Assembly: GCF_024223415.1 (NCBI RefSeq)
Contig: NZ_CP100500.1
Reading direction: 5' to 3' (one strand)
Length of the DNA: 64,000 nt
Source of the DNA: Escherichia coli
GTDB taxonomy: Bacteria > Pseudomonadota > Gammaproteobacteria > Enterobacterales > Enterobacteriaceae
Shown: one piece after another, positions 1,306 through 27,944 of the stretch
How the letters are laid out: each line of letters starts with the position of its first letter
How positions within the stretch are numbered: the stretch's first letter is position 1
Position numbers and translations under genes: made by a program
Notes under the pieces: generated by a model
Database searches by the model: none
The model's input: the letters and a program-made list of their open reading frames with translations, nothing else
Told to the model about the DNA's origin: nothing

Positions 1306-3207
1306 ATGTCAACCGGATTACGTTTCACACTGGAAGTGGACGGCCTGCCACCGGACGCTTTTGCGGTGGTTTCCTTTCATCTCACCCAGTCACTCTCTTC
1401 GCTCTTTTCCCTCGATCTCTCCCTGGTCAGCCAGCAGTTTCTCTCCCTTGAATTCCAGCAGATCCTCGACAAAATGGCCTACCTGACGATATGGCAGGGC
1501 GATGACGTACAGCGCCGGGTGAAAGGTGTGGTGACCTGGTTTGAACTGGGGGAGAACGACAAAAACCAGATGCTGTACAGCATGAAGGTATGCCCGCCGC
1601 TGTGGCGTGCCGGTCTGCGCCAGAACTTCCGTATCTTCCAGAACGAGGACATCAAAAGCATCCTCGGCACGATATTGCAGGAAAACGGGGTGACCGAGTG
1701 GAGTCCGCTGTTCAGTGAACCGCATCCTTCCCGTGAGTTTTGTGTCCAGTACGGTGAGACTGATTACGATTTCCTGTGCCGGATGGCGGCGGAGGAAGGC
1801 ATCTTCTTTTATGAGGAGCATGCTTACAAAAGTACCGACCAGAGCCTGGTGCTGTGCGACACGGTCCGCCATCTGCCCGAATCTTTTGAAATCCCATGGA
1901 ACCCGAACACCCGTACCGAGGTGAGCACCCTCTGCATCAGCCAGTTTCGCTACAGCGCACAAATCCGCCCTTCTTCCGTGGTGACCAAAGACTACACCTT
2001 TAAACGCCCCGGCTGGGCAGGACGTTTTGATCAGGAAGGCCAGCACCAGGATTACCAGCGCACGCAGTATGAGGTGTATGACTACCCCGGACGTTTCAAG
2101 GGCGCCCACGGGCAGAACTTTGCCCGCTGGCAGATGGAGGGCTGGCGAAACAATGCAGAAACCGCGCGGGGAATGAGTCGCTCGCCGGAGATATGGCCGG
2201 GACGGCGAATTGTGCTGACGGGGCATCCGCAGGCGAACCTGAACCGGGAATGGCAGGTGGTGGCAAGTGAACTGCACGGCGAGCAGCCGCAGGCGGTGCC
2301 GGGAAGGCGGGGAGCAGGGACGGCGCTGGAGAACCATTTTGCGGTGATCCCGGCAGACCGGACATGGCGACCCCAGCCGCGGCTAAAACCGCTGGTGGAC
2401 GGTCCGCAGAGCGCCGTCGTGACGGGGCCGGAGGGTGAGGAAATCTTCTGTGATGAACATGGCCGAGTGCGGGTGAAATTCAACTGGGACCGTTATAACC
2501 CGGCAGACCAGGACAGCTCGTGCTGGATCCGTGTGGCACAGGCGTGGGCAGGCACCGGTTTTGGCAACCTGGCGATACCGCGTGTGGGTCAGGAGGTGAT
2601 AGTGGACTTCCTCAACGGCGATCCGGACCAGCCGATCATTATGGGGCGCACCTACCACCAGGAAAACCGCACCCCCGGCAGCCTGCCGGGGACGAAGACG
2701 CAGATGACCATCCGTTCCAAAACGTATATGGGCAGCGGGTTTAATGAGCTGAAGTTTGACGATGCGACAGGGAAAGAACAGGTCTACATCCACGCGCAGA
2801 AGGACATGGATACCGAGGTACTCAACGATCGTACCACCACCGTAAAACACGATCATCGCGAAACCGTAAAAAATGACCAGACGGTCACGATACAGGAAGG
2901 TAATCGCCTTCTTATGGTGGAAAAAGGCGACAAGATCACAGGAGTACGAAAAGGTTCTTTATCTGAGAATGTCTTTCAGGACAGAGGCACGATTGCCGGT
3001 TCGGTGCATGTTGACGCTGTAGACAATGGTGGCGAAGGCAACGGTATACAGGCTTATACGGCAATTAAGGAAATTATGCTGGCCGTGGAGGAAAGCAAAA
3101 TTGCGCTGACGCCGGATGGCATTCAGCTACAGGTCGGGGAATCAACGGTAATCAGGCTGTCGAAGGATGGCATCACCATCGTGGGCGGCTCTGTTTTTAT
3201 CAACTGA
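1306..3207 (+). CDS. vgrG: T6SS spike protein VgrG
   Basis: 633 aa; gp27/gp5-like architecture with conserved gp5-type segment (IPRVGQEVIVDFLNGDPDQPIIMG); good RBS (ggaggttgctATG); followed by Eag chaperone and PAAR-Rhs genes. Confidence 0.9.
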   Translation: MSTGLRFTLEVDGLPPDAFAVVSFHLTQSLSSLFSLDLSLVSQQFLSLEFQQILDKMAYLTIWQGDDVQRRVKGVVTWFELGENDKNQMLYSMKVCPPLWRAGLRQNFRIFQNEDIKSILGTILQENGVTEWSPLFSEPHPSREFCVQYGETDYDFLCRMAAEEGIFFYEEHAYKSTDQSLVLCDTVRHLPESFEIPWNPNTRTEVSTLCISQFRYSAQIRPSSVVTKDYTFKRPGWAGRFDQEGQHQDYQRTQYEVYDYPGRFKGAHGQNFARWQMEGWRNNAETARGMSRSPEIWPGRRIVLTGHPQANLNREWQVVASELHGEQPQAVPGRRGAGTALENHFAVIPADRTWRPQPRLKPLVDGPQSAVVTGPEGEEIFCDEHGRVRVKFNWDRYNPADQDSSCWIRVAQAWAGTGFGNLAIPRVGQEVIVDFLNGDPDQPIIMGRTYHQENRTPGSLPGTKTQMTIRSKTYMGSGFNELKFDDATGKEQVYIHAQKDMDTEVLNDRTTTVKHDHRETVKNDQTVTIQEGNRLLMVEKGDKITGVRKGSLSENVFQDRGTIAGSVHVDAVDNGGEGNGIQAYTAIKEIMLAVEESKIALTPDGIQLQVGESTVIRLSKDGITIVGGSVFIN

Positions 3208-3234
3208 TTCACTCAGATTATCAGGGAGTATTTT

Positions 3235-3696
3235 ATGCAGTTCACTTTTAATGAAGGCCACATTCAACTGCCGTCTCAATGGCAGGATCAGTCAATGCAG
3301 GTCCTGGTGTCCACAGATAACAGTGGCATCAACCTGGTCATTACCCGCGAAGCCGTTCCACAGGGAACCCTGACACCAGAGCTGTACCAGGAAACGCTGG
3401 CGCTGTACCAGGGCAAACTTGATGGGTACACCGCACATGCCTGCCGGGAAATCACTCTGGCAGAGGCCCCGGCCTGGCTGCTGGATTATTCCTGGAACGG
3501 TCCGGAAGATGAAGGGAATCAGGGGCGGATTAGCCAGATAGCCGTATTCCAGCGGCGTGGAGATACGCTGCTGACCTTCACTTTCAGCACCTCCTTATCC
3601 CTGAAGAACAGTCAAAAGACGATGCTGCTGGAGGTGATAAAGAGCTTCACCCCGTTGCCACCGGAGAATGATATCCAAAAGGACCAGCCGCGCTGA
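3235..3696 (+). CDS. DUF1795/Eag-family effector chaperone (EagR-like)
   Basis: 153 aa; N-terminal FNEG...LPSQWQDQS signature typical of Eag chaperones; sits between vgrG and a prePAAR Rhs effector. Confidence 0.65.
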   Translation: MQFTFNEGHIQLPSQWQDQSMQVLVSTDNSGINLVITREAVPQGTLTPELYQETLALYQGKLDGYTAHACREITLAEAPAWLLDYSWNGPEDEGNQGRISQIAVFQRRGDTLLTFTFSTSLSLKNSQKTMLLEVIKSFTPLPPENDIQKDQPR

Positions 3697-3715
3697 CATA
3701 AACGAGGGATAACAC

Positions 3716-6700
3716 ATGAGTGAAGGACCAGGCGGGCCACAGGGAGCGACCGCAGGCGGTACGCTGGCAATGCGAATGCTTTCACAGCAGGCGATGGTCG
3801 CCAGCCAGATGAAACGGGCAGCCAACAACAAAGCCATTGCACAGATGTTGGCATCAAAAAAGTCTGGCCCCCCCGCCGCCAGGCTGGGCGATGAAATTCA
3901 GCACAAGAGTTTTTTGGGGGCGCTGGCAGGGGCCGTGCTGGGGGCGATAGTGACCATCGCAGAAGGTTGCCTGATTATGGCCGCCTGTGCCACCGGCCCT
4001 TATGCGCTGGTTCTGGTGCCTGCGCTGATGTATGCCAGCTATAAGGCGAGTGATTATGTGGAGGAGAAACAGAACCAGCTTGAATCATGGATAAACAGCT
4101 TTTGTGACACGGACGGCGCCATCAATACCGGTTCTGAAAACGTAAAAATTAACGGAAAGCCCGCTGCCAGGGCCGCCGTCACCCTTCCCTCTCCTCCCCC
4201 GCCTGAAGCAATACCCGAAGCCTCACAGGGGGAGCATTCATGGGGTGACATGGCCCTTGACCTGCTTGAATCGGCAGCGGAAAAAGCAGCGCCACTGGCT
4301 AAATCCTGGGGGAACGCTGTTATCACCCTGACGGACAGCAATGCCAGTTTTATGGATCGCGTCAGTGCAGGCGCATCGCTTCTGTTTCCCGCCGGTCCGG
4401 TATTAATGGAGTTTGCCACCATGGTGGGCGGGCGTGGCGAAATCAAAAAAGATGTGGATTTCCCGGAAGCCGGTGAGGACACGGCGCTCTGCGACAAGGA
4501 GAACAAACCACCGAGGATAGCCCAGGGCAGCAGCAACGTCTTTATCAACAATCAGCCTGCCGCGCGCAAGGGCGACAAACTGGAGTGCAGCGCGGCAATC
4601 GTGGAAGGTTCGCCGGACGTCTTTATTGGGGGTGAGCAGGTCACCTATCTGGATATCCAGCCGGAGTTCCCGCCATGGCAGAGAATGATCCTGGGAGGAA
4701 TAACGATAGCCAGCTATCTTCTGCCGCCAGCAGGACTGCTGGGAAAACTGGGGAATCTGGCGAAACTGGGCAAACTGGGAAACCTGCTGGGGAAAAGCGG
4801 GAAGCTGCTGGGCGCAAAACTCGGCGCGTTGCTGGGGAAAACAGGTAAGTCGTTAAAAAGTATTGCCAATAAAGTCATCAGATGGGTAACAGATCCTGTC
4901 GATCCGGTAACCGGCGCGTACTGCGACGAACGTACCGACTTCACCCTGGGCCAGACCCTCCCCCTCTCCTTCACCCGTTTCCACAGTTCTGTACTGCCAC
5001 TGCATGGCCTGACGGGCGTGGGCTGGAGCGACTCCTGGAGCGAATACGCCTGGGTGCGTGAACAGGGAAACCGGGTGGATATCATCAGCCTGGGAGCCAC
5101 GCTGAACTTCGCCTTCGACGGTGAAAGTGATACGGCGGTTAACCCGTATCACGCCCAGTACATTCTGCGCCGCTGCGACGATTACCTGGAGCTGTTCGAC
5201 AGGAATGCACTGAGCAGCCGCTTCTTTTATGACGCCTTTCCGGGAATGCGTCTGCGCCACCCGGTGACTGACGATACCAGCGATGACCGCCTGGCACACA
5301 GCCCCGCAGACCGGATGTACATGCTGGGCGGGATGAGCGACACCGCCAGCAACCGCATCACGTTTGAGCGCGACAGCCAGTACCGGATCACGGGTGTCAG
5401 TCACACCGACGGGATCCGGCTTAAACTGACGTACCACGCCAGCGGCTACCTGAAAGCCATTCACCGCACGGATAACGGCATACAGACGCTGGCGACCTAC
5501 GAACAGGATGCGCGGGGGCGGCTGACAGAAGCGGATGCGCGGCTGGACTACCACCTGTTTTATGAGTACGACGCTGCGGACCGGATCATCCGCTGGTCCG
5601 ATAACGACCAGACGTGGAGCCGTTTCACCTACGATGAACAGGGCCGGTGCGTGACCGTCACCGGGGCGGAGGGCTATTACAACGCCACGCTGGACTATGG
5701 TGACGGCTGCACCACCGTGACGGACGGCAAGGGCATTCACCGTTATTACTATGATCCTGACGGCAATATTCTGCGGGAAGAAGCGCCGGACGGCAGCACC
5801 ACCACGTATGAATGGGATGAATTCCATCACCTGCTGGCCCGCCACTCCCCTGCCAGGCGGGTGGAGAAATTTGAATACAACGCCGCACAGGGTCAGTTAA
5901 GCCGTTACACGGCGGCAGACGGCGCGGAGTGGCAGTACTGCTATGATGAGCGCGGCCTGCTCAGCAACATCACCGACCCTGCCGGGCAGACGTGGACGCA
6001 GCAGTGTGATGAACGCGGCCTGCCGGTAAGTCTGGTGTCGCCACAGGGCGAAGAGACCCGGCTGGCGTACACGCCGCAGGGGCTGCTGTCGGGGATATTC
6101 CGCCAGGATGAACGGCGTCTGGGCATAGAGTACGACCACCACAACCGGCCGGAAACACTCACCGACGTGATGGGCCGTGAACACCACACCGAATACAGCG
6201 GTCACGACCTGCCGGTGAAGATGCGCGGCCCCGGCGGTCAGTCAGTGCGGTTGCAGTGGCAGCAGCACCATAAACTGAGCGGCCTTGAGCGGGCAGGAAC
6301 CGGCGCAGAAGGATTCCGCTATGACCGCCACGGCAACCTGCTGGCGTACACGGACGGTAACGGCGTTGTCTGGACAATGGAATACGGCCCGTTCGATTTG
6401 CCGGTGGCGCGAACGGACGGTGAAGGCCACCGCTGGCAGTACCGCTACGATAAAGACACGCTGCAGCTCACAGAAGTCATTAACCCGCAGGGTGAGTCTT
6501 ATCTTTATATTCTGGACAACTGTGGCCGGGTGACGGAAGAACGTGACTGGGGCGGCGTGGTCTGGCGTTACCGTTATGACGCTGATGGCCTGTGTACCGC
6601 CAGGGTCAACGGCCTGGAGGAAACCATCCTCTACGGCCGGGACGCCGCAGGCCGCCTGGCAGAAGTCATCACGCCGGAAGGTAAAACGCAGTATGCGTAT

Positions 6701-8536
6701 GACAAATCCGGCAGGCTGACGGGTATCTTCAGCCCGGACGGCACATCACAGCGCACCGGCTACGACGAACGCGGGCGGGTGAATGTCACCACTCAGGGCC
6801 GACGGGCCATTGAATACCACTACCCCGACGAACATACCGTCATCCGCTGTATCCTGCCACCGGAAGATGAACGCGACAGACACCCCGATGAATCCCTGCT
6901 GAAAACCACGTACCGCTACAACGCAGCCGGAGAACTGACGGAGGTTATCCTGCCGGGGAATGAGACGCTGACGTTCAGCCGTGATGAGGCAGGACGTGAA
7001 GTGTTCCGGCACAGTAACCGGGGTTTTGCCTGTGAGCAGGGCTGGAATGCAGCCGGCCAGCTTACCAGCCAGCGCGCCGGACTTTTCCCGGAGGAAGCCA
7101 CGTGGGGCGGGCTGGTTCCGTCACTGGTGCGGGAGTACCGTTACGACAGCGCGGGTAATGTGTCAGGCGTCACCAGCCGGGAAGATTACGGACGGGAAAC
7201 ACGGCGGGAATACCGGCTGGACCGGAACGGCCAAGTCACGGCGGTGACAGCCTCAGGCACCGGGCTGGGCTATGGCGAAGGCGATGAGTCCTATGGCTAT
7301 GACAGCTGTGGCTACCTGAAGGCGCAGTCTGCGGGCAGGCACCGGATAAGTGAAGAGACTGACCAGTATGCCGGAGGCCACCGGCTGAAACAGGCCGGAA
7401 ACACGCAGTATGACTATGACGCCGCAGGCCGGATGGTCAGCCGGACAAAACACCGTGACGGCTACCGCCCGGAAACAGAGCGGTTCCGGTGGGACAGCCG
7501 GGACCAGCTGACCGGGTATTGCAGCGCACAGGGTGAGCTGTGGGAATACCGCCACGACGCCAGCGGCAGACGAACAGAGAAACGCTGCGACCGGAAGAAA
7601 ATCCGCTTCACGTATCTGTGGGACGGCGACAGTATTGCGGAAATCCGGGAATACCGCGATGATGAACTGTACAGCGTACGGCACCTGGTGTTTAACGGCT
7701 TTGAGCTGATAAGCCAGCAGTTCAGCCGGGTACGGCAGCCGCACCCGTCCGTGGCTCCGCAGTGGGTGACGCGGACGAATCATGCGGTGAGCGACCTGAC
7801 GGGCCGGCCGCTGATGCTCTTTAACAGTGAAGGTAAAACCGTCTGGCAGCCGGGACAGACCAGCCTGTGGGGGCTGGCACTCAGCCTGCCCGCAGACACA
7901 GACTACCCGGACCCGCGCGGGGAACTGGACCCGGAAGCCGACCCCGGCCTGCTGTATGCGGGACAGTGGCAGGATGCGGAATCCGGGCTGTGCTATAACC
8001 GGTTCCGGTATTACGATCCGGAAACCGGAATGTACCTGGTGAGTGATCCGCTGGGGTTGCAGGGAGGGGAGCAGACTTACCGGTATGTGCCTAATCCTTG
8101 TGGGTATGTTGATCCCTCTGGGTTGGCAATGACTTCGAAAATAGTCAATAAACTACCTTCTGCAAAAGATCTTGCTACAAAAAGGGCCAGTGAGTTATTA
8201 GCAAAGGCAACATCTAATACCCAGCGAAGTAAATTACCAAGGGCAGTTTCAGCTGTTGTTGATAAGAGAACTGGCAAAATATATTATGGAGAAAGTGGCT
8301 GGCCTCACCCAACAGAAATACATCCTACATTACAAAATAATATGCCATCAGCCAGTAAGGAGCGATGGGCAATCGAGAACTGTGCGGAATTTAAAGCTGT
8401 AAATGAAGCTTTGAAGGCAAATGCGAAAATTAGTGATCTTGAAGTTCATACAGTATTGGTAAAAACAGGCGAAGCTTTTCCAATGTGTAAGAATTGTCAA
8501 ATTTCAATATTTGGCGCTGTTGTTACAAGCGGGTGA
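3716..8536 (+). CDS. prePAAR/PAAR-domain Rhs polymorphic toxin (T6SS effector) with deaminase-like C-terminal domain
   Basis: 1606 aa; prePAAR motif AARLGDEIQH, hydrophobic helices, PAAR-like segments (NGKPAARAAV, NNQPAARKGD), long YD-repeat core, DPLGL demarcation motif, then ~140 aa divergent AT-rich tail containing CAE...PMCKNC. Confidence 0.9.
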   Translation: MSEGPGGPQGATAGGTLAMRMLSQQAMVASQMKRAANNKAIAQMLASKKSGPPAARLGDEIQHKSFLGALAGAVLGAIVTIAEGCLIMAACATGPYALVLVPALMYASYKASDYVEEKQNQLESWINSFCDTDGAINTGSENVKINGKPAARAAVTLPSPPPPEAIPEASQGEHSWGDMALDLLESAAEKAAPLAKSWGNAVITLTDSNASFMDRVSAGASLLFPAGPVLMEFATMVGGRGEIKKDVDFPEAGEDTALCDKENKPPRIAQGSSNVFINNQPAARKGDKLECSAAIVEGSPDVFIGGEQVTYLDIQPEFPPWQRMILGGITIASYLLPPAGLLGKLGNLAKLGKLGNLLGKSGKLLGAKLGALLGKTGKSLKSIANKVIRWVTDPVDPVTGAYCDERTDFTLGQTLPLSFTRFHSSVLPLHGLTGVGWSDSWSEYAWVREQGNRVDIISLGATLNFAFDGESDTAVNPYHAQYILRRCDDYLELFDRNALSSRFFYDAFPGMRLRHPVTDDTSDDRLAHSPADRMYMLGGMSDTASNRITFERDSQYRITGVSHTDGIRLKLTYHASGYLKAIHRTDNGIQTLATYEQDARGRLTEADARLDYHLFYEYDAADRIIRWSDNDQTWSRFTYDEQGRCVTVTGAEGYYNATLDYGDGCTTVTDGKGIHRYYYDPDGNILREEAPDGSTTTYEWDEFHHLLARHSPARRVEKFEYNAAQGQLSRYTAADGAEWQYCYDERGLLSNITDPAGQTWTQQCDERGLPVSLVSPQGEETRLAYTPQGLLSGIFRQDERRLGIEYDHHNRPETLTDVMGREHHTEYSGHDLPVKMRGPGGQSVRLQWQQHHKLSGLERAGTGAEGFRYDRHGNLLAYTDGNGVVWTMEYGPFDLPVARTDGEGHRWQYRYDKDTLQLTEVINPQGESYLYILDNCGRVTEERDWGGVVWRYRYDADGLCTARVNGLEETILYGRDAAGRLAEVITPEGKTQYAYDKSGRLTGIFSPDGTSQRTGYDERGRVNVTTQGRRAIEYHYPDEHTVIRCILPPEDERDRHPDESLLKTTYRYNAAGELTEVILPGNETLTFSRDEAGREVFRHSNRGFACEQGWNAAGQLTSQRAGLFPEEATWGGLVPSLVREYRYDSAGNVSGVTSREDYGRETRREYRLDRNGQVTAVTASGTGLGYGEGDESYGYDSCGYLKAQSAGRHRISEETDQYAGGHRLKQAGNTQYDYDAAGRMVSRTKHRDGYRPETERFRWDSRDQLTGYCSAQGELWEYRHDASGRRTEKRCDRKKIRFTYLWDGDSIAEIREYRDDELYSVRHLVFNGFELISQQFSRVRQPHPSVAPQWVTRTNHAVSDLTGRPLMLFNSEGKTVWQPGQTSLWGLALSLPADTDYPDPRGELDPEADPGLLYAGQWQDAESGLCYNRFRYYDPETGMYLVSDPLGLQGGEQTYRYVPNPCGYVDPSGLAMTSKIVNKLPSAKDLATKRASELLAKATSNTQRSKLPRAVSAVVDKRTGKIYYGESGWPHPTEIHPTLQNNMPSASKERWAIENCAEFKAVNEALKANAKISDLEVHTVLVKTGEAFPMCKNCQISIFGAVVTSG

Positions 8537-8540
8537 TTAT

Positions 8541-8978
8541 ATGTGTGAATTAATTAATGAAGCATCAAAATATGGGAAAGTCAATGTAAGAAAGATGGAC
8601 ATTGATTTGTGTTGTAAAAAAATAGAGGAAGAAGGGTATTCTGTTTTCGTTGCGTTCTATGATTTTATAAAAAAATATGGCGGTTTATATGGCTTTCATT
8701 CAGCTTACAAAGACACCACTATAAGTGAGGCTTTTTTTATAGATCCAGAAAGGGCCTCTAATCGCATTTTTATAGAAAGAGTCAATGATTATATTGAGAG
8801 AGCTGGTTACAATATGATTCCTGTTGGCGAGTGCAGTAATGGTCATATCACATTATTATATGGGGAAAATAATGTGATATATGGCGGCTTGGATGATTAT
8901 CTTTGGAAGTATGGGGATAATTTATCTTCATCAATTGATATATTGATTAATGGTAAGGAGGCAGTTGAAATTCCGTAA
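8541..8978 (+). CDS. putative immunity protein for the Rhs C-terminal toxin
   Basis: 145 aa from internal ATG (track ORF 8511..8978), starting 5 nt after rhs stop; AT-rich like the toxin tail; assigned by position only. Confidence 0.55.
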   Translation: MCELINEASKYGKVNVRKMDIDLCCKKIEEEGYSVFVAFYDFIKKYGGLYGFHSAYKDTTISEAFFIDPERASNRIFIERVNDYIERAGYNMIPVGECSNGHITLLYGENNVIYGGLDDYLWKYGDNLSSSIDILINGKEAVEIP

Positions 8979-8986
8979 GGCCAACT

Positions 8987-10909
8987 GCCAGGGCCAACGG
9001 CCTGGAGGAAACCATCCTCAACAGCCGGGACGCCGCAGGCCGCCTGGCAGAAGTCATCTCGCCGGAAGGCAAAACGCAGTATGCGTATGACAAATCCGGC
9101 AGGCTGACGGGTATCTTCAGCCCGGACGGTACATCACAGCGCACCGGCTATGATGAACGCGGGCGGGTGAATGTCACCACTCAGGGCCGACGGGCCATTG
9201 AATACCACTACCCCGATGAACACACCGTCATCCGCTGTATCCTGCCACCGGAAGATGAACGCGACAGACACCCCGATGAATCCCTGCTGAAAACCACATA
9301 CCGCTACAACACCGCCGGAGAACTGACGGAGGTCATTCTGCCGGGGGATGAGACGCTGACGTTCAGCCGTGATGAGGCGGGACGTGAAGTGTTCCGGCAC
9401 AGTAACCGGGGTTTTGCCTGTGAGCAGGGCTGGAATGCAGCCAGCCAGCTTGTCACCCAGCGCGCCGGATTTTTCCCGGAGGAAACCACATGGGGCGGGC
9501 TGCTCCCCTCACTGGTACGGGAGTACCGTTACGACAGCGCGGGCAATGTGTCGGCTGTCACCAGCCGGGAAGATTACGGACGGGAAACACGGCGGGAATA
9601 CCGGCTGGACCGGAACGGCCATGTCACGGCGGTGACAGCCTCAGGCACCGGGCTGGGCTATGGCGAAGGCGATGAGTCCTATGGCTATGACAGCTGCGGC
9701 TACCTGAAGGCGCAGTCTGCGGGCAGGCACCGGATAAGTGAAGAGACTGACCAGTATGCCGGAGGCCACCGGCTGAAACAGGCCGGAAACACGCAGTATG
9801 ACTATGACGCCGCAGGCCGGATGGTCAGCCGGACAAAACACCGTGACGGCTACCGCCCGGAAACAGAGCGGTTCCGGTGGGACAGCCGGGACCAGCTGAC
9901 CGGGTATTGCAGCGCACAGGGTGAGCAGTGGGAATACCGCCACGACGCCAGCGGCAGACGGACGGAAAAACGCTGTGACCGGAAGAAAATCCGTTTTACG
10001 TACCTGTGGGACGGCGACAGTATTGCGGAAATCCGGGAATACCGCGATGATGAACTGTACAGCGTACGGCACCAGGTGTTTAACGGCTTTGAGCTGATAA
10101 GCCAGCAGTTCAGCCGGGTACGGCAGCCGCACCCGTCCGTGGCCCCGCAGTGGGTGACGCGGACGAATCACGCGGTGAGCGACCCGACGGGCCGCCCGCT
10201 GATGCTCTTTAACAGTGAAGGCAAGACGGTCTGGCGGCCGGGGCAGACCAGCCTGTGGGGGCTGGCACTCAGCCTGCCCGCAGACACCGACGACCCGGAC
10301 CCGCGCGGGGAACTGGACGCGGAAGCCGACCCCGGCCTGCTGTATGCAGGACAGTGGCGGGATGGGGAATCCGGGCTGTGCTATAACCGGTTCAGGTACT
10401 ACGAGCCGGAAACCGGAATGTACCTGGTGAGTGATCCACTGGGGTTGCTGGGGGGTGAGCAGACTTACCGGTATGTGCCTAATCCACTGGGTTGGATTGA
10501 CCAGTATGGACTTGCTGGTTGCCCCAGAGCTCTGGCAAGGGCAATGAAACGGGCTAACAGAAACCTAGCTAAGAGTGCCGGATACATGAATCGAGCTTGG
10601 TATAAATTCAAAGGTTCTGCCGCCCATCATATTGTTGCTTGGGATGACCCCCGTGCTTTAGGCGCAAGAAAAATTCTGGAAAAATATGGTATACACATTG
10701 ATTCCGCAGAAAATGGAATATTTTTGAAACATGTAGATCCAAACTCTCTTCAGCCAGGATCTTATCATCGTGTTATTCATACGAACAAATATTATGCTGA
10801 TGTTGAGGCACGACTCGCAGACGCAGCTAAGGCTAATGGGAAACAAGGTGTTCTTGATGAGTTAGATGCTATCAGGGATGACCTGCTTTTTAATAGACTA
10901 ATTTATTAA
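8987..10909 (+). CDS. orphan Rhs C-terminal cassette (core 3' fragment plus alternative toxin domain with AHH nuclease motif)
   Basis: DNA ~8987-10485 is a near-duplicate of main rhs ~6598-8097; after the DPLGL motif the tail differs and contains SAAHHIVAWDD; lacks N-terminus (first ATG at 9167), so may be silent. Confidence 0.7.
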   Translation, partial: ARANGLEETILNSRDAAGRLAEVISPEGKTQYAYDKSGRLTGIFSPDGTSQRTGYDERGRVNVTTQGRRAIEYHYPDEHTVIRCILPPEDERDRHPDESLLKTTYRYNTAGELTEVILPGDETLTFSRDEAGREVFRHSNRGFACEQGWNAASQLVTQRAGFFPEETTWGGLLPSLVREYRYDSAGNVSAVTSREDYGRETRREYRLDRNGHVTAVTASGTGLGYGEGDESYGYDSCGYLKAQSAGRHRISEETDQYAGGHRLKQAGNTQYDYDAAGRMVSRTKHRDGYRPETERFRWDSRDQLTGYCSAQGEQWEYRHDASGRRTEKRCDRKKIRFTYLWDGDSIAEIREYRDDELYSVRHQVFNGFELISQQFSRVRQPHPSVAPQWVTRTNHAVSDPTGRPLMLFNSEGKTVWRPGQTSLWGLALSLPADTDDPDPRGELDAEADPGLLYAGQWRDGESGLCYNRFRYYEPETGMYLVSDPLGLLGGEQTYRYVPNPLGWIDQYGLAGCPRALARAMKRANRNLAKSAGYMNRAWYKFKGSAAHHIVAWDDPRALGARKILEKYGIHIDSAENGIFLKHVDPNSLQPGSYHRVIHTNKYYADVEARLADAAKANGKQGVLDELDAIRDDLLFNRLIY

Positions 10910-10922
10910 TAAGGGCATAGTA

Positions 10923-11456
10923 ATGAATGTTTATTTAATTCGGCATGATGTGGACAACTTCAAGTTTTACTTGCAAGACGAGAGTGACTTTCTTTCAGTT
11001 GCTGCTTTTGATTTTTGTGGAGAGTCTCTATTTAATGGATGGAAACCATACAAAATAGAGCTATTTAAAGGAAAAACTAAAGCTGAGAAATCATTAAACG
11101 GGGATTTTAATTCATCATGTTTTAGTCCAGGATTATTATACGTCGAACATTCTCTCGCAGATGTATTATCTCGTCAGGCAAATGATATTGAGTTATTAAA
11201 AGTAATCACCAGTGATGATCGTGATTTTTATTATGCAAACGTGGTAGGGAAAATACCAGCCTTACATTATAACAACAGACAAGAGCTACAAATTATGAGT
11301 AGAACACAAGAATATAAATTCAATAACTCCATAAATGAAATGTTAATATTTCGTGATAAAACATTACCTTCAAACTATTTTGTTACAGATCGTTTTGTGG
11401 ATATTTTTCAGAATGATTTTCGTGGGGTAATTTTTAAAAAAGTTGGTGAGATATAA
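10923..11456 (+). CDS. putative immunity protein for the orphan Rhs-CT
   Basis: 177 aa, AT-rich, immediately downstream of orphan toxin stop; assigned by position. Confidence 0.5.
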   Translation: MNVYLIRHDVDNFKFYLQDESDFLSVAAFDFCGESLFNGWKPYKIELFKGKTKAEKSLNGDFNSSCFSPGLLYVEHSLADVLSRQANDIELLKVITSDDRDFYYANVVGKIPALHYNNRQELQIMSRTQEYKFNNSINEMLIFRDKTLPSNYFVTDRFVDIFQNDFRGVIFKKVGEI

Positions 11457-11482
11457 CTTAATGCATTGAACATCTAACCCGT

Positions 11483-12015
11483 ACCGCTATGACCGCCACG
11501 GTAACCTGCTGGCGTACACGGACGGTAACGGCGTTGTCTGGACGATGGAATACGGCCCGTTCGATTTGCCGGTCGCGCGAACGGACGGTGAAGGCCACCG
11601 CTGGTGGTACCGCTACGATAAAGACACGCTGCAACTGACAGAAGTCATCAACCCGCAGGGTGAGTCATATCTTTATGTTCTGGATAACTGTGGCCGGGTG
11701 ACGGAAGAGCGTGACTGGGGCGGCGTGGTCTGGCGTTACCGCTATGACGCCGATGGCCTCTGTACCGCCAGGGTCAACGGACTGGAGGAAACCATCCTCT
11801 ACAGCCGGGACGCTGCAGGGCGCCTGGCAGAAGTCATCACGCCGGAAGGGAAAACGCAGTATGCGTATGACAAATCCGGCAGGCTGACGGGTATCTTCAG
11901 CCCGGACGGCATATCACAGCGCACCGGCTATGACGAACGCGGGCGGGTGAATGTCACCACTCAGGGCCGACGGGCAGGGAAAGATCATCAGAAGTTCACT
12001 TTTTGTACTAAATAA
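11483..12015 (+). pseudogene. truncated rhs core fragment
   Basis: ~11483-11975 duplicates main rhs ~6316-6807, then diverges into a short tail before a stop; no toxin domain; abuts the H-repeat element. Confidence 0.7.
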
Positions 12016-13400
12016 TTCGCATTTTATGTTTAAAAATTGAGATATTCCTCATTATCCGAAGCTGTTTTTTATTGCTTATACATGATCAAATACTCCTTAC
12101 ATAATTAAGGAGAACAAAATGGAACTTAAAAAATTGATGGAACATATTTCTATTATCCCCGATTACAGACAAGCCTGGAAAGTGGAACATAAATTATCAG
12201 ATATTCTACTGTGGACTATTTGTGCCGTTATTTCTGGTGCAGAAGGTTGGGAAGATATAGAGGATTTTGGGGAAACACATCTCGATTTTTTGAAGCAATA
12301 TGGTGATTTTGAAAATGGTATTCCTGTTCACGATACCATTGCCAGAGTTGTATCCTGTATCAGTCCTGCAAAATTTCACGAGTGCTTTATTAACTGGATG
12401 CGTGACTGCCATTCTTCAGATGATAAAGACGTCATTGCAATTGATGGAATAACGCTCCGGCACTCTTATGATAAGAGTCGTCGCAGGGGAGCGATTCATG
12501 TCATTAGTGCGTTCTCAACAATGCACAGTCTGGTCCTCGGACAGATCAGGACGGATGAGAAATCTAATGAGATTACAGCTATTCCTGAACTTCTTAACAT
12601 GATGGATATTAAAGGAAAAATCATCACAACTGATGCGATGGGTTGCCAGAAAGATATTGCAGAAAAGATACAAAAACAGGGAGGGGATTATTTATTCGCT
12701 GTAAAGGGAAATCAGGGGCGACTAAATAAAGCCTTTGAGGAAAAATTCCCGCTGAAAGAATTAAATAATCCAGAGCATGACAGTTACGCAATCAGTGAAA
12801 AGAGTCACGGCAGAGAAGAAATCCGTCTTCATATTGTTTACGATGTCCCTGATGAACTTATTGATTTCACGTTTGAATGGAAAGGGCTGAAGAAATTATG
12901 CGTGGCAGTCTCCTTTCGGTCCATAATAGCAGAACAAAAGAAAGAGCCAAAAATGACGGTCAGATATTATATCAGTTCTGCTGATTTAACCGCAGAGAAG
13001 TTCGCCACAGCAATCCGAAACCACTGGCACGTGGAGAATAAGCTGCACTGGCGTCTGGACGTGGTAATGAATGAAGACGACTGCAAAATAAGAAGAGGAA
13101 ATGCAGCAGAATTATTTTCAGGGATACGGCACATTGCTATTAATATTTTGACGAATGATAAGGTATTCAAGGCAGGGTTAAGACGTAAGATGCGAAAAGC
13201 AGCCATGGACAGAAACTATCTGGCGTCAGTCCTTGCGGGGAGCGGGCTTTCGTAATCTTGCCCTGCCTGCTCACCTCCAGGCACTTCCACTACATCATGA
13301 CCTGATCGGTGCCACCACTCCTCTTCACTATGACGTTAACCTCCCCTCCTTGACACCACGCTTTTGTCTACATTCTACGCAAACGGCAACTTTTATAACC
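11976..13400 (+). mobile_element. H-repeat (ISAs1-family) insertion element; boundaries approximate
   Basis: Homology to rhs ends at ~11975; contains the transposase ORF; right end not resolved by eye. Confidence 0.45.
12119..13255 (+). CDS. ISAs1-family transposase (H-repeat-associated protein)
   Basis: 378 aa; classic H-rpt protein sequence ([31 protein letters not shown]...); known association with Rhs elements. Confidence 0.9.
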
Positions 13401-22268: not shown

Positions 22269-23018
22269 TCAGTCAATTGTTTTGTTTATTCCATCTGTGA
22301 CGCCGATTATTTTCTCAAAATAATGAGATGGCGTGACACCATAATAATCTTTAAATGCACATATGAAATATGAAGTACTGTTATAGCCACATTTCTGGGC
22401 TACGACATTGATAGAATAAGAGTTTGAAGTTATGAGTTTTTTTGCATACCTCATCCTAGTATCTCTCAATATTTCAGTAAATGACGTTCCTTCATCCCTT
22501 AATCTTTTTTTTATTAAACTTTCACTCGTATAAATCAATTCCGCAATATCTTTTAAATGCCATTGCCGCTCAATATTAAAACTGATTATTCCAGTAATTT
22601 TACAGGTAAATGTATTTATATTTGTTAGTATAAATGAATTTACACTTTCGCGTTTTTTGAACATGGCAAGTAAGGATATACATAGTCTTTCTTTTAACCA
22701 AAGGGAGTATGAGTCTGCTATTTTAATCCCTTCAAACAGAGAAAAAACAAGCGATAATGGAGGTTCCTCTTCAGCAATATAGCCATTCTTATCAAGAGTA
22801 AATTTGCCAGGCAGCTCATTATTCACGTCGATAAAAAAGGATAAACATGTTTTCTTATCTATATCAACAATTCTTAGTTTAGAGGGGCATACTGGTAACT
22901 CCCTTCTAATTTTATCGCTTACAATAAACAATGAATTTTTTTTGAACGAGATAACTCTCCTGTTTATAATTAAATCAAATGATTGACAGATGAAAACTAC
23001 GGAGCAAACATAATCCAT
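22269..23018 (-). CDS. appY: AraC-family regulator AppY
   Basis: 249 aa; AT-rich; C-terminal AraC HTH; K-12 synteny next to ompT. Confidence 0.9.
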
Positions 23019-23577
23019 CTTGCACCTATCATAAAATTAAAACAAGTTGATAGCAGTCAAATAACAACCAATTAAATACACAATCATAATCAGGATGATG
23101 TGCATTTATATTTTTATACACAAAATTATAGTTTGCAAATTTTAATAAATTTCATTTAAGATTAAATTATTATATGTATATTGTTTTTTATTCTAACGTA
23201 TTTCAAAGTTACATTTTTCAACGCTTACTATACTTTTTATTAACATAAACTCACTACAACGCACCTGAAACCTCTTGCTATATATATGTCAACCGTTTGA
23301 ATTTAAAATAAAAAGAGTATCATTTTTACTTGCATTTCTTATCAAGTCACATTCAACAACAGTAAAAAAACATTATTAGAACCATTCAATTAACAAAAAA
23401 CCAACATCCAGCTTGCTTAATTTTTCTTTATTAAACGATATTGAAAATCAATTGATAAAATACATCTAAACAACCTTTTGGGGCGCAAAAGCATAACATC
23501 AAACAAACAAATAACACACCGAAAAAACTCACAATTAATAACCTATGATATACATACTGTTTATTATGGTTGAATAA

Positions 23578-23824
23578 GCCACTCGATATCTGGTGCTACG
23601 GAAGTGTCCACACGGTTTAGCAGCACCCGATACTTTTTTCAGGCTTCCAGCAACGATCTTTCTTCCTCCGTTGCGATTTCCAGATCTACAGCATCCTGCA
23701 GTGGCGCAATATACTCACTGAATTCCTGGATGTAGAACTGTGTGGTGACGGTCTTCCAGCCATTCGGCTCCTGCTGTATTGAAGCATACCAGGCTATTTC
23801 AATATCGCTATGCTGCGGCAGCAT
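23578..23824 (-). pseudogene. tail fibre assembly gene remnant (tfaX-like)
   Basis: 61-aa ORF 23639..23824; 23578-23720 is a ~143-bp near-duplicate of the 3' part of tfa (24628-24769) with a 1-nt indel creating a stop. Confidence 0.7.
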
Positions 23825-23880
23825 TTAACCCCTTGTAATTCATTGCCATAATTGATTTAATTCACAAATAAAACTATAAC

Positions 23881-24549
23881 ATGGTGAAATTAATGAAAAA
23901 AAACACAGATGATGGGGCTAAAATTTACACACCACTTACCCTAAAGCTTTATGACTGGTGGGTTTTGGGAGTATCAAATCGGCTTGCATGGGGATCTCCT
24001 ACAAAGGAACACCTTCTTCCACACTTTCTGGAACATTTAGGTAACAACCATCTGGATATTGGTGTTGGAACTGGGTTTTACCTTACTCACGTACCTGAGA
24101 GTAGTCTGATATCTTTAATGGATTTGAACGAAGCTAGCCTGAACGCGGCATCTACAAGGGCTGGGGAATCAAAAATTAAACATAAAATTAACCATGATGT
24201 TTTTGAACCTTGTCCCGCGGCGTTACATGGTCAATTTGATTCCATTTCCATGTTTTACCTTCTTCACTGCCTGCCTGGAAATATATCTACAAAAAGCTGT
24301 GTAATACGCAATGCGGCGCAGGCCTTAACTGACGATGGAACTCTATACGGAGCCACAATTCTTGGCGATGGAGTTGTGCACAATAGCTTCGGTCAAAAAC
24401 TGATGCGCATTTACAATCAGAAAGGCATCTTTTCAAACACAAAAGATTCCGAAGAAGGCTTAACACATATACTCTCAGAGCATTTCGAGAATGTTAAAAC
24501 CAAGGTTCAAGGTACTGTAGTAATGTTTTCCGCTTCAGGGAAAAAATAG
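23881..24549 (+). CDS. SAM-dependent methyltransferase (YbcY-like)
   Basis: 222 aa; motif I DIGVGTGFY; K-12 DLP12 has ybcY at the equivalent position. Confidence 0.7.
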   Translation: MVKLMKKNTDDGAKIYTPLTLKLYDWWVLGVSNRLAWGSPTKEHLLPHFLEHLGNNHLDIGVGTGFYLTHVPESSLISLMDLNEASLNAASTRAGESKIKHKINHDVFEPCPAALHGQFDSISMFYLLHCLPGNISTKSCVIRNAAQALTDDGTLYGATILGDGVVHNSFGQKLMRIYNQKGIFSNTKDSEEGLTHILSEHFENVKTKVQGTVVMFSASGKK

Positions 24550-24603
24550 CATCCAACCGCAGCACGTTCTTGCTTAAGACGTGCTGCGGCATAATCCCAA
24601 TGA

Positions 24604-25188
24604 TTACTCCCTGACAGGGTTCGTAGGCCACTCAATATCAGGTGCAGTTGATGTATCAACACGGTTCAGCAACACCCGATACTTTTTCCAGGCTTCCAGC
24701 AATGAGGTTTCTTCCTCCGTTGCGATTTCCAGATCTACAGCATCCTGAAGTGGCGCAATATGCTCACTGGCTACCTGCATCAGGCTGTTTTTTGTTTCTT
24801 CCGCCTCCCGGATCCGGAACAGTTTTTCTGCTTCTGCATCTTTCACCCAGGCTGTGCCGTTCCACTTCTGAAACTCCCCTTCCGGCGATAACCAGGTAAC
24901 ATTTTCCGGTAACGGACCGAGTTCAGAAATAAATAACTCGTCCCCTGACGCTACGTCATAAACCGTTTTACCCCGATGGTCTTCAACGAGATGCCACGAT
25001 GCCTCATCACTGTTGAAAACAGCCACAAAGCCAGCAGGAATATCTGGTGGTGCAATATCGGTACTGTTTGCTGGCAGACCTGTATGAGGCGGAATATATG
25101 CGTCACCTTCACCAATAAATTTATTAGTTCCGGCCAGCAGATTATAAATTTTTATGGTCCGTGCTTGTTCACTCATTCTGAATGCCAT
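24604..25188 (-). CDS. tail fibre assembly protein (Tfa)
   Basis: 194 aa; immediately downstream of side tail fibre gene; conserved Tfa C-terminus ([16 protein letters not shown]). Confidence 0.85.
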
Positions 25189-27944
25189 TATGCAAGCCTC
25201 ACAATATAGTTAAATGCGATGTTTTTGACGGTGTTTTCCGCGTTACCAGCAGCGTTAACGGTGATGGTGTGTCCATGTGAGCCAATCGCAACGGAGTGCG
25301 TATGAGCACCAATACCGACAGTATGTGCGTGTGCACCTGCAGATGCTGCGGTGCCGGACAGTGAGTGGCTATGATTACCATCTGTACTGGTATTAGCTAA
25401 CGCCCCCGTAGACATACCTACTGAGCCTTGTACACCCCAAGTATTTTGACCTGAGCTTGTATAACCATATTGATAAGTATCTTTAAAAACACTGGGGTTA
25501 AATCGACGGCCATCTCTATGGCTGTGATTACCAGCTGCATTCGTGCTGCCACTTAAACTATGGGTATGCGCACCAGTGTTATTCGTAGATTTAGTGCCGT
25601 AATCAAACGACGATGTGGTTTTCGTCCCCAAATCCGTACTGGATGCGCTGGCGCTGTGGGTGTGCGATTTAATGCCGTCCTGTTCCTGAGACAATACGGC
25701 ACGACCACTGGCGGGCTTGCCCTTAATCGTCCAGCCACGCATATCAGGGATCACGCCTGACGGATAAGCCGCTGCAAGTTTCGGGTATGCAGATTTGTCA
25801 AAAGCCTGCCCCTGCATCAGGGCATAGCCAGACGGAACGGTATCTGATGGCCACGGGATTGGTGCGCCAGGCGGATAAAACTGCTCTGATGGCGTATAGA
25901 GTGAATAAACTGTACCGTCCGTTAACCCTTCCGGCTTATTAGCAGAATATGCTGGTGACGTATGAATCGTCACGCTGGCATTACTGGTATAATCCCATTG
26001 AATATTTACACCAGTCGCATAATTTCCGATTGCAACGTAAATATCGTAAGTATCACCAGATGTATTAACCCAGGCAAAATTTGTAAACCCTGTCAATGTG
26101 CGCTGCCATAAAGCACCAGTAATCCCCTTCGGATTACCATTACCTGCACGTAAAACAAGTTCAGATATACCTGCCTGTTGAGGTGACCCCACGTTAAATC
26201 CAGCGCCACCAATCAACGTAATTGAAACAACAGAACTCGCCTGTGGCATGGTTACCGTTGCTAATTTGAACCAACCAGCACCACCGCTGAATGACATTGT
26301 TGTTGAGTTAAGCGTACCAATATCTTTCGGCGTCAGTGTTATATCCGCTGAAAGCGCCTTACCATTCACCTTACGGGCAGAAGGTACCCGACCATTCGCA
26401 TTGTCATTAGCTGCTTTCACTGCTTTCGGTGTCGCAGCAAGCGTTTCAGATGTGCTGTTGGTTGCACTACTGAGCTGGACAATTCCTTTTTGTGCTGTCG
26501 TAGCGTCCTGTGCGGTGTATTTCCCGTTAGCCAGGTCATACGCGGCCTTAACGGCTTTTGGCGTTGCCGCCTGTGACTCGGAAGTGCTGTTAGTCGCACT
26601 GCTGAGCTGAACTATCCCTTTCTGTCCTGTCGTTGCATCCTGTGCGGTGTATTTCCCGTTAGCCAGGTCATACGCGGCCTTAACGGCTTTTGGCGTTGCC
26701 GCCTGTGACTCGGAAGTGCTGTTGGTCGCACTGCTGAGCTGTACTATCCCCTTTTTCGTCGTGCTCGCATCCTCAAGCGCCACGGCGGATGCAATATCCT
26801 CTGCCCGTTTTGCTGCTGTCTCGGCGCGCGTTGCCGCGGATTCCGCCGTACTTTTGCTCTGTGCTGCCGCTGCCGCACTGCCAGCAGCCTCTGTCGCCTT
26901 CGTGGATGCCGTCGTGGCGCTGCCCCTCGCTGCTGACGCCTGTCTGGTCGCCTCATCTTTTGAAGCAGACGCAGATGATGCCGATGACGCCGCCGAACTG
27001 GCGGACGATGCGGCAGCCGTTTTTGAGGATTCTGCGCTGGTTTCCGACGCTTTCGCGTTCGTTTCGGATGTCTTCGCTGCGGAAGCAGACCTCGCTGCTG
27101 CGCTGGCCTGTTCAGTGGCTTCGCCAGCCTTCGTTGTGGCTGTTGAAGCGGATGATGCGGCGCTTTCTGCCGATTTTCCGGCGGCGGTGGCACTGACTGC
27201 TGCCTCCTCTGCCTTAATGGACGCCTCACGGGCCGATGATGCAGCTGCTGTCTCAGAGTCTGCCGCAGCTGAGGCGCTCTGTTCCGCTGCCGTTTCAGAA
27301 GACTTAGCATTCGTCTCGGACGTTTTCGCCGCAGCGGCACTGGTAGCTGCCGCGCTTTTTGAGGACTCTGCAGCAGCAGCACTTTTCGATGCTTCACTGG
27401 CCTTTGTTGATGCCGTTCCTGCGCTGGAAGATGCTGACTGAGCCGACGACGCGGCCTGTCCGGCTGACGTGCTGGCTGCGCGTGCTGAGCCTGCAGCATC
27501 AGTCGTATGGGTTGCCGCCTCACGGGCTGATGTGCTGGCATCGCTGGCTGACTTCTTCGCGGCTGCCGTGTTCTGTGCCACCGCGGACGCGTTACGCGCC
27601 ACCTCTTCCACCATCAGTTCAAAACGGCGCAGTGCCTCAGGACGGGCATCATCCTCCGTCATGGCACCGAGAAAATCATTCAGCGTACCGGGTCGGGAAT
27701 CTTCATACACGGTGATGGTCCCGGCATGTGACGGCGGGAACCCCTCCACCAACAGAATAACGCTGTACTGCCCGTACTCAACGTCCATGCTGTAACGCCC
27801 GGCTTCATCCGGATTTTCTGAGGCCAGCGTGTTCACCACCACCGTGGTGCTGTTACGTTTTGCTTTCAGCTGGATTGTGCAGTTCTGTACCGGTTTTCCT
27901 GTGCCGTCTTTCAGTACACCTGAAATCTTTACTGCCATATTCAC
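25188..27944 (-). CDS. side tail fibre protein (Stf-like)
   Basis: 918 aa; lambda Stf-like N-terminus, long Ala/Ser/Thr-rich region, three 44-aa tail-fibre repeats ([41 protein letters not shown]), His-rich C-terminal tip. Confidence 0.9.
26377..26772 (-). repeat. three tandem ~132-bp coding repeats inside the tail fibre gene
   Basis: Units beginning ~26377, 26509 and 26641 are near-identical at DNA level. Confidence 0.85.

Follow-up and report, generated by a model that had tools for sequence, protein, structure and literature searches.

Genes and features between appY and stf

The window analyzed here is a 64,000-nt stretch of Escherichia coli DNA (contig NZ_CP100500.1 of assembly GCF_024223415.1) in which a lambdoid prophage occupies the DLP12 (argU) site. 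Our subject is a direct repeat at the right end of this prophage that flanks a methyltransferase gene between appY (22269-23018, minus strand) and the side tail fiber gene stf. Four features occupy the interval: the short open reading frame (ORF) known as tfaX, the ORF of a ybcY-like methyltransferase, a stable hairpin, and the tail fiber assembly gene tfa (Table 1). The genes lom, J, and other lambdoid virion genes are located upstream on the minus strand, and ompT, envY, ybcH, and nfrA on the other side. The original prediction, made from the sequence alone, held that the 3′ portion of tfa is duplicated on the far side of the methyltransferase gene, that the second copy had been inactivated by a 1-nt indel, and that exchange of tail fiber assembly cassettes had left the methyltransferase gene between repeats through which it could be deleted.

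The product of tfa matched the Caudo_TAP family (PF02413) with an E value of 2.7e-45 over profile positions 1-130 of 131, a full-length family match, and the gene abuts stf on the same strand. Its DNA is 93% identical to tfa of phage lambda, and homology to lambda covers 24555-25286 of the window, that is, it begins right after the stop codon of the methyltransferase gene. Between stf and tfaX lie both tfa and the methyltransferase gene; tfaX matched only Caudo_TAP profile positions 75-130 and is not a full-length member of the Tfa family.

The same gene order and orientation are present in E. coli K-12, where DLP12 carries tfaD (b0561), ybcY (b0562, a pseudogene), and tfaX (b0563) next to appY, ompT, and envY, with DNA 99% identical to that of the window. 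The 61-residue K-12 TfaX product, including its TGA stop, is identical to that of the window, and the neighbors, ybcY and appY, are the same. The feature is already known as this annotated tfaD-ybcY-tfaX arrangement, and it is a phage mosaic scar of the textbook kind. The prophage of the window differs from K-12 DLP12 in being far more complete, with a 918-residue stf product, lom, J, and other virion genes present, in having a full-length tfa (194 residues) where K-12 has the N-terminally replaced TfaD, and in having an intact methyltransferase gene.

The direct repeat and the composition of tfaX

Pairwise alignment of copy A, located in tfaX, with copy B, at the 3′ end of tfa, revealed an ungapped direct repeat of 157 nt with 135 matches (86%) and a spacing of 1049 nt. 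The longest perfect run is 40 nt (23659-23698). At a matching probability of 0.25 per site, 135 or more matches out of 157 would have a chance of about 4e-58, and the other 'repeats' of the region reach only 20-28 nt at 71%-81% identity. The repeat of ~143 bp predicted to flank the methyltransferase gene was thus borne out at almost exactly the coordinates given, and over the range originally proposed (23578-23720) the identity is 88%. In the window, a secondary joint to the AT-rich appY spacer cuts copy A off at 23575; at other loci (trp/ompW, and smpB in P2-like prophages) the repeat extends over 216-218 nt and takes in the hairpin that follows tfa. At 22900-23500, the spacer that separates appY from tfaX has a very low G+C content (24%-27%), and binding of H-NS and RNA polymerase to this spacer has been reported in K-12 (PMC3946193).

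The predicted indel in copy A was wrong. The alignment is ungapped over the whole repeat, both copies are in the same frame, and the stop codon arises from a single substitution of TGG (Trp) to TGA at 23639, which is T here and C at the equivalent position 24688. Beyond the TGA the frame of copy A reads on (20 residues, compared with 21 residues in tfa). The ungapped alignment and the continuing frame together rule out an indel as the origin of the stop. We next counted the allele in 5426 complete E. coli genomes, the set used for all counts below, with a 55-nt query that had the variant base at its center; any 28-nt megablast seed then had to include that base. The TGA allele was present in 613 genomes and exactly the same context with TGG in only nine; most open alleles of the ORF differ from the window at bases near the stop site. 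One genome (L003) has an appY-linked remnant with copy A markers and TGG, which indicates that TGA is a later point mutation, a derived minority allele within the DLP12-linked lineage.

Read through its stop, the 86-residue tfaX ORF matched phrog_2341, an 88-residue profile to which no function is assigned, with residues 1-85 on positions 1-85 (E value 4.9e-58). Residues 3-37 also matched positions 2-36 of the 79 positions of phrog_3893 (E value 3.2e-7), and residues 29-86 matched Tfa families. Because its two parts hit different families, the comparison indicates that tfaX is an in-frame chimera of two gene fragments and not a decayed tfa, and that phrog_2341 is itself the phrog_3893/Tfa fusion. 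The first 37 residues belong to no Tfa family, and the two-domain layout of Tfa, both parts of which are found in the full tfa, is lacking in tfaX. The earlier observation that the sequence upstream of copy A (23722-23824) has no relation to tfa is thereby confirmed, and this sequence is identified as the start of a phrog_3893-type gene.

Intact phrog_3893 genes of 79-80 codons are found in Klebsiella phage Kp4882-3, Erwinia phage Eho59, and Escherichia phage Eeyore (79 codons), in all three just upstream of a umuD-like gene and between the tail genes and the integrase gene. The 5′ part of tfaX is 51% identical to the ORF of Kp4882-3 and 44% identical over 41 residues to the Eho59 protein. tfaX does not match phrog_3893 over its full length, and the umuD-like neighbor is also absent at the window locus. 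The joint between the two parts (...TVTTQF[YF]IQEFSE[YH]IAPLQDAV) is identical in all 14 chimeric homologues aligned, which argues for a single founding event. In E. coli we found no full-length parent gene in which the 5′ part of tfaX is joined to more than 37 codons. Two candidates for such a parent were rejected: one hit (H70) is a further deletion joining 23778 to stf, and the copy in phage Ayreon itself stops at codon 33.

These results bear on the proposal that copy A is what remains of a once complete second tfa, left by a cassette swap, inactivated by an indel and diverged in its upstream part. The methyltransferase gene does lie between two tfa-type 3′ ends, and cassette exchange at this segment is real, as described below. 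However, the repeat contains no indel and preserves the frame over its full length, the 37 upstream codons match phrog_3893 from their own start codon rather than a degraded tfa, the joint is the same in all aligned copies, and the stop is a substitution carried by a minority allele. We consider a second tfa very unlikely; only a full-length tfa allele that looks like MLPQHSDIEIAW...QEFSEY at residues 100-136 could rescue this view. Copy A is instead a 3′ fragment of tfa fused in frame to the 5′ part of a phrog_3893-type gene.

In some genomes, the NCBI annotation places a 'DinI family' call opposite 23726-23806, and we examined DinI as a possible origin of the 5′ part of tfaX. This origin was rejected, as neither strand carries a DinI signal: real DinI as a tblastn query found no match, and the Pfam and NCBIfam models (including PF06183) gave no hit on either strand of the 5′ part. 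In Eeyore, the annotated 'DinI' of 160 residues (L014, 2144-2626) has a DinI domain at residues 89-149 only. Its N-terminal extension runs antisense to the intact 79-codon phrog_3893-type gene that precedes the umuD-like gene, and the stretch similar to the 5′ part of tfaX is located in this extension, outside the DinI domain. The 'DinI family' pseudogene calls beside tfaX in E. coli genomes may stem from a probably over-extended ORF of the Eeyore type.

The repeated segment could also be viewed as a small RNA gene overlapping tfa, the two copies then being two small RNA loci. cmscan matched the Rfam family IS009 (RF02111) to both copies, above the gathering score at copy B and below it at copy A (Table 1), and IS009 is regularly reported beside prophage sequences. 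The match, however, is sense to and within the tfa reading frame, and one study dropped IS009 from its analysis of non-coding RNAs owing to the overlap with tfa coding sequence (PMC5331693). None of the 19 pairs changed on both sides, and the covariation score was reached by 143 of 500 shuffles in a comparison of low power (nine distinct sequences). The synonymous sites of the segment diverge freely, with a proportion of synonymous differences of 0.55-0.63. Hence, both copies resemble IS009 in matching the model and differ from a small RNA family in that the matched stretch is sense, protein-coding tfa in which no covariation was found. We regard small RNA loci as a highly improbable explanation of the repeat, and the IS009 model may for the most part describe the conserved 3′ end of tfa rather than a small RNA.

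Recombination within the repeat

We searched for deletions with a query built as the sequence predicted from a crossover between copies A and B, and inspected the best 25 of 460 matches. At least three genomes (EM18-18-42, WGI31CT, and CFIAFB20190172) gave one unbroken match of 977 nt at the same appY locus, with no methyltransferase gene; this count of three is a lower bound, drawn from the best 25 matches. In EM18-18-42 and WGI31CT the sequence is of the A type up to 23658 and of the B type from 23699, which places the crossover within the perfect core at 23659-23698, and the product is a full-length hybrid tfa carrying the TGA stop. In CFIAFB20190172, the switch occurred between 23609 and 23618 (crossover at 23610-23617) and produced an intact hybrid tfa. 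The prophage of EM18-18-42 is 99.8% identical to that of the window in lom and J. The TGA is derived within the remnant and yet is present in the full-length tfa of EM18-18-42 and WGI31CT, which favors deletion, rather than an ancestral state, as the source of the hybrids that lack the methyltransferase gene.

The repeat has also served as a site at which tail fiber modules were exchanged. In 236 genomes, a remnant of copy A is joined at 23674 to a different tail fiber module, and strain MRY15-131 has the same joint at the equivalent base of copy B (24723), so that both repeat contexts show the joint. The appY spacer is present in 832-834 genomes; about 455-460 of these carry the complete arrangement, 236 carry the alternative module, and at least three carry the precise deletion. 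The original prediction therefore stood in two respects, the use of the segment as an exchange site and the removal of the methyltransferase gene by recombination between the copies, for which the hybrid genomes provide two crossover points; its indel-inactivated second tfa did not stand.

The alleles of the chimera provide a further indication of exchange. At synonymous sites, they diverge by 0.15 in the 5′ part and by 0.55-0.63 in the part taken from tfa, and this four-fold difference indicates that the tfa-derived part has a history separate from that of the 5′ part, as expected if it recombines with other tfa alleles.

The divergence data are also relevant to the possibility that the chimeric ORF (82-101 residues when open) encodes a functional protein made of the C-terminal domain of Tfa without its fiber-binding domain, such as one that modulates Tfa trimers or interferes with them, in which case the repeat would have been kept for the use of this protein and the window would carry a null allele. 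Open forms occur widely, in clusters with up to hundreds of members; one 82-residue form is present on about 1000 contigs. A good Shine-Dalgarno sequence (AAGGGG) is located 6 nt ahead of the ATG, the neighboring spacer bound RNA polymerase in K-12, and the ratio of non-synonymous to synonymous substitution rates (dN/dS) in the tfa-derived part is 0.15-0.24. On the other hand, the 3′ ends are cut at several points and run into unrelated sequence, shortened forms of 48-68 residues are common too, the 613 genomes with TGA and the early stop in Ayreon add to these, and the NCBI annotation pipeline labels the ORF a pseudogene. The low dN/dS may have been inherited from functional tfa alleles via recombination, given the four-fold higher synonymous divergence, and the 5′ part shows only three synonymous versus five to seven non-synonymous changes, indistinguishable from neutrality. 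We therefore think a functional chimera very unlikely. It is likewise highly improbable, in our estimate, that a Tfa C-terminal domain expressed from the open chimera enters or blocks the Tfa trimers of the same or a rival phage and forms, together with the methyltransferase gene, a cassette bounded by tfa ends that moves between lambdoid and P2-like phages.

Invertible tail fiber segments carry two tfa-type genes, and the repeats might accordingly be seen as crossover sites of a site-specific system, a remnant of a segment like G of Mu, C of P1, or P of e14. The locus resembles these segments in having two tfa-type sequences close together beside tail fiber genes, and the related phage Eeyore has a DNA invertase next to its tail fiber genes. 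In contrast to the invertible segments, the copies here are in direct orientation, the second one is only a 3′ fragment, and no recombinase ORF is present between appY and stf (22269-27944). Moreover, the crossovers vary in position within the homology, as homologous recombination would predict. We consider this origin extremely unlikely.

Distribution, the proposed founding join, and cargo genes

A 159-nt junction segment, made up of the 5′ part of tfaX and the spacer that precedes the methyltransferase gene, was found at 4907 places in 3867 of the 5426 genomes, and nearly all records were at least 95% identical. The arrangement is present in lambdoid prophages at other sites (trp/ompW and potB) and in the sequenced phages PhiR26_1, ev243, and 2G7b; a search of a literature library for the PhiR phages with the arrangement returned nothing, and one on tfaX and ybcY returned only a SELEX (systematic evolution of ligands by exponential enrichment) promoter table (PMC3946193). 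The block of stf 3′ end, tfa, methyltransferase gene, and chimera also occurs, 93.6% identical to the window, in P2-like prophages at smpB (L020 and L021), where it follows either P2-type fiber and tfa genes or gene D. In L020, a tfa 3′ fragment of ~190 nt is located right after gene D. The L020 element probably carries three tfa ends, and recombination between two such ends in an L020-like form could have given rise to L021.

Phage lambda and the prophage at the dusA site have nearly the same tfa followed by other cargo, with no methyltransferase gene. In strain GN4751, the near-identical tfa of the dusA prophage is followed by genes on the opposite strand for a SLATT-domain protein and a reverse transcriptase (L002, 2012-3911). 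The position after tfa thus holds differing cargo among prophages, including likely defense genes. In PhiR26_1, a sequenced phage that was propagated on MG1655, ompT and a gene for an alpha/beta-hydrolase are located beyond a tfaX-type remnant. Because a phage genome carries ompT in this position, genes usually taken as the chromosomal edge of DLP12 can travel in a phage genome.

Taken together, we consider it probable that the duplication is a recombination scar, formed by one illegitimate join and followed by spread, exchange, and deletion through homologous recombination in the tfa end. In the founding event, two temperate phage genomes or tandem prophages would have been joined once, out of register and without homology. 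One parent would have had a phrog_3893-type accessory gene downstream of stf, tfa, and the methyltransferase gene, and the second would have contributed tfa from codon ~137, so that codon ~37 of the accessory gene became fused to codon ~137 of tfa. The product would have been a full tfa, an oppositely oriented methyltransferase gene, and a chimeric ORF ending in a second tfa 3′ end. The uncut repeat of 216-218 nt with the hairpin fits a second parent that gave tfa from codon ~137 together with its natural downstream sequence. From then on, recombination through the shared tfa end would at times have removed the methyltransferase gene, swapped the tail fiber module, and exchanged the tfa part of the chimera, and the products of these events are those observed; the enzyme for these later exchanges would be RecA or a phage Rad52-type recombinase.

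A passage in PMC9608196 summarizing North et al. (2019) describes Tfa proteins as having a variable N-terminal fiber-binding domain and a conserved C-terminal helical domain for trimerization. The repeat offers homology for exchange because the conserved C-terminal domain is the part of tfa most likely to be common to different phages. Phages and defective prophages have been described to undergo relaxed recombination by phage Rad52-type recombinases (De Paepe et al., 2014, as cited in a passage of PMC6379469), and the present case resembles this in that phage and prophage sequences were exchanged at diverged homology (86%) with a 40-nt perfect core.

Several points weigh against a recombination scar with this history. 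We found no genome in which both intact parents stand side by side, and we infer the founding join from its product. The chimeric ORF is open in most alleles and its tfa part has a low dN/dS, and a functional small protein would look alike. As to loss or gain of the methyltransferase gene in the hybrid genomes, a crossover with an incoming phage would yield the same sequence as a deletion, and CFIAFB20190172 taken alone can be read either way.

Mosaic 'novel joints' and morons are known in lambdoid phages from Hendrix and colleagues. The locus resembles them in having an opposite-strand gene between the tail fiber genes and the attachment site end, in its sharp joints, and in its spread over lambdoid and P2-like elements. 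Unlike in the lambdoid mosaics, the joint is located within two coding sequences and has left an in-frame chimera and a direct repeat of 157-218 nt. Haggard-Ljungquist and coworkers reportedly described in 1992 the horizontal exchange of tail fiber genes among lambda, P2, Mu, P1, and T4. The sopE cassette of Salmonella is said to have moved between P2-like and lambda-like phages beside tail fiber genes (Mirold and coworkers, 2001), and exchangeable effector loci reportedly lie downstream of the tail fiber genes in lambdoid prophages of enterohemorrhagic E. coli (Tobe and coworkers, 2006). As in these effector loci, the cargo studied here is found beside tail fiber genes in unrelated phage types and is flanked by tail fiber-related sequence; it differs in being a predicted small molecule-type methyltransferase and not a secreted effector.

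The methyltransferase product matched phrog_2132 over its full length (Table 1). Its homologues and the PHROG profile align from residue 5, and the ATG at 23893 may therefore be the true start codon. At E values below 1e-10, the product has related sequences in about 760 clusters formed at 50% identity. The predicted structure is confident, with a predicted local distance difference test (pLDDT) score of 95.2, and its nearest solved folds, with template modeling scores of 0.6-0.67, are phosphatidylethanolamine N-methyltransferase, juvenile hormone acid methyltransferase, and natural product C- and N-methyltransferases. Sequence and predicted fold point to a small molecule or lipid methyltransferase, with no specific substrate named. 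A role in restriction-modification, anti-restriction, or defense was considered and rejected: the product gave no signal for a DNA methyltransferase or a defense system and matched only generic class I methyltransferase domains, the sole PADLOC hit was marginal (E value 0.007), and the nearest folds are those of lipid and small molecule enzymes.

The spacer before the methyltransferase gene contains a sigma-70-like consensus match at 23825-23852 on the plus strand, and in K-12 the tfaX/ybcY spacer bound RpoD holoenzyme and H-NS in genomic SELEX (PMC3946193). Between the methyltransferase gene and tfa we found no canonical intrinsic terminator; the hairpin located there has no U tract. The gene may be a moron. 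It is absent from lambda and from the dusA prophage with their near-identical tfa; compared with known morons, a promoter of its own is only suggested, by the consensus match and the K-12 SELEX data, and so is a terminator, by the hairpin. A 45-residue ORF (24494-24631, minus strand; RefSeq hypothetical protein WP_001309429.1) overlaps the 3′ end of the methyltransferase gene, the hairpin, and the 3′ end of tfa and looks like an annotation artefact.

Elsewhere in the window, stf contains at 26392-26787 three tandem units of 132 nt (100%, 76%, and 63% identical to the first) that encode Phage_fiber_2 repeats, and it is at these units that stf varies in length among related prophages, from 918 residues to about 1025-1130 residues. 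A type VI secretion effector island occupies 1306-12015, between the end of cusS and nfrB; its parts and the transposase gene that follows are listed in Table 1.

Table 1. Positions of the features described in the text, with the evidence for each
Feature	Position	Strand	Evidence
tfaX, short ORF, 61 residues	23639-23824	−	Read up to the TGA stop
Chimeric ORF, tfaX read through the stop, 86 residues	23566-23824	−	phrog_2341 match end to end
tfaX 5′ part, first ~37 codons of a phrog_3893-family gene	23722-23824	−	Profile and protein comparison
Repeat copy A, tfa-derived 3′ part of tfaX	23575-23731	−	Repeat search, alignment
TGA stop codon of tfaX	23639-23641	−	TGG to TGA substitution at 23639
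Divergent spacer between tfaX and methyltransferase gene, 56 nt	23825-23880		Sigma-70-like match and K-12 SELEX data
ybcY-like class I S-adenosylmethionine-dependent methyltransferase, 222 residues	23881-24549	+	Pfam; phrog_2132, E value 1e-153
Stable hairpin between the convergent methyltransferase and tfa genes	24557-24589		−23.9 kcal/mol, z −5.7
Repeat copy B, 3′ end of intact tfa, ~residues 137-188, conserved C-terminal domain	24624-24780	−	Alignment, Caudo_TAP
tfa, tail fiber assembly gene, intact, 194 residues	24604-25188	−	Pfam Caudo_TAP (PF02413)
stf, side tail fiber gene, 918 residues, directly upstream of tfa	25188-27944	−	phage_tail_N, Phage_fiber_2, Collar
Rfam IS009 (RF02111) match, overlapping copy B, inside and sense to tfa	24647-24845	−	229.5 bits (gathering score 117)
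Second IS009 match, over copy A, below threshold	23598-23801	−	110 bits (gathering score 117)
VgrG (type VI secretion effector island)	1306-3207
DcrB-like ORF (same island)	3235-3696
PAAR-Rhs protein, 1606 residues (same island)	3716-8536
SUKH-3 immunity ORF (same island)	8511-8978
Orphan Rhs fragment with AHH nuclease tip (same island)	9167-10909
Further Rhs fragment (same island)	11545-12015
DDE transposase, following the island	12119-13255

The value of these findings is mostly for annotation. tfaX is to be read as a fusion of two fragments and not as a decayed tfa, the NCBI 'DinI family' fragments opposite tfaX appear to stem from an over-extended DinI model, and Rfam IS009 matches in E. 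coli prophages largely correspond to the coding 3′ end of tfa. Should the open chimera or the methyltransferase play a role in phage competition or in the physiology of the host, this would concern ~70% of E. coli genomes, although nothing here shows such a function. For temperate phages, the locus is a clean natural case of a short conserved coding segment used as a recombination handle, with the parental arrangement, two independent deletion products, and the module swap all visible among the 5426 genomes.

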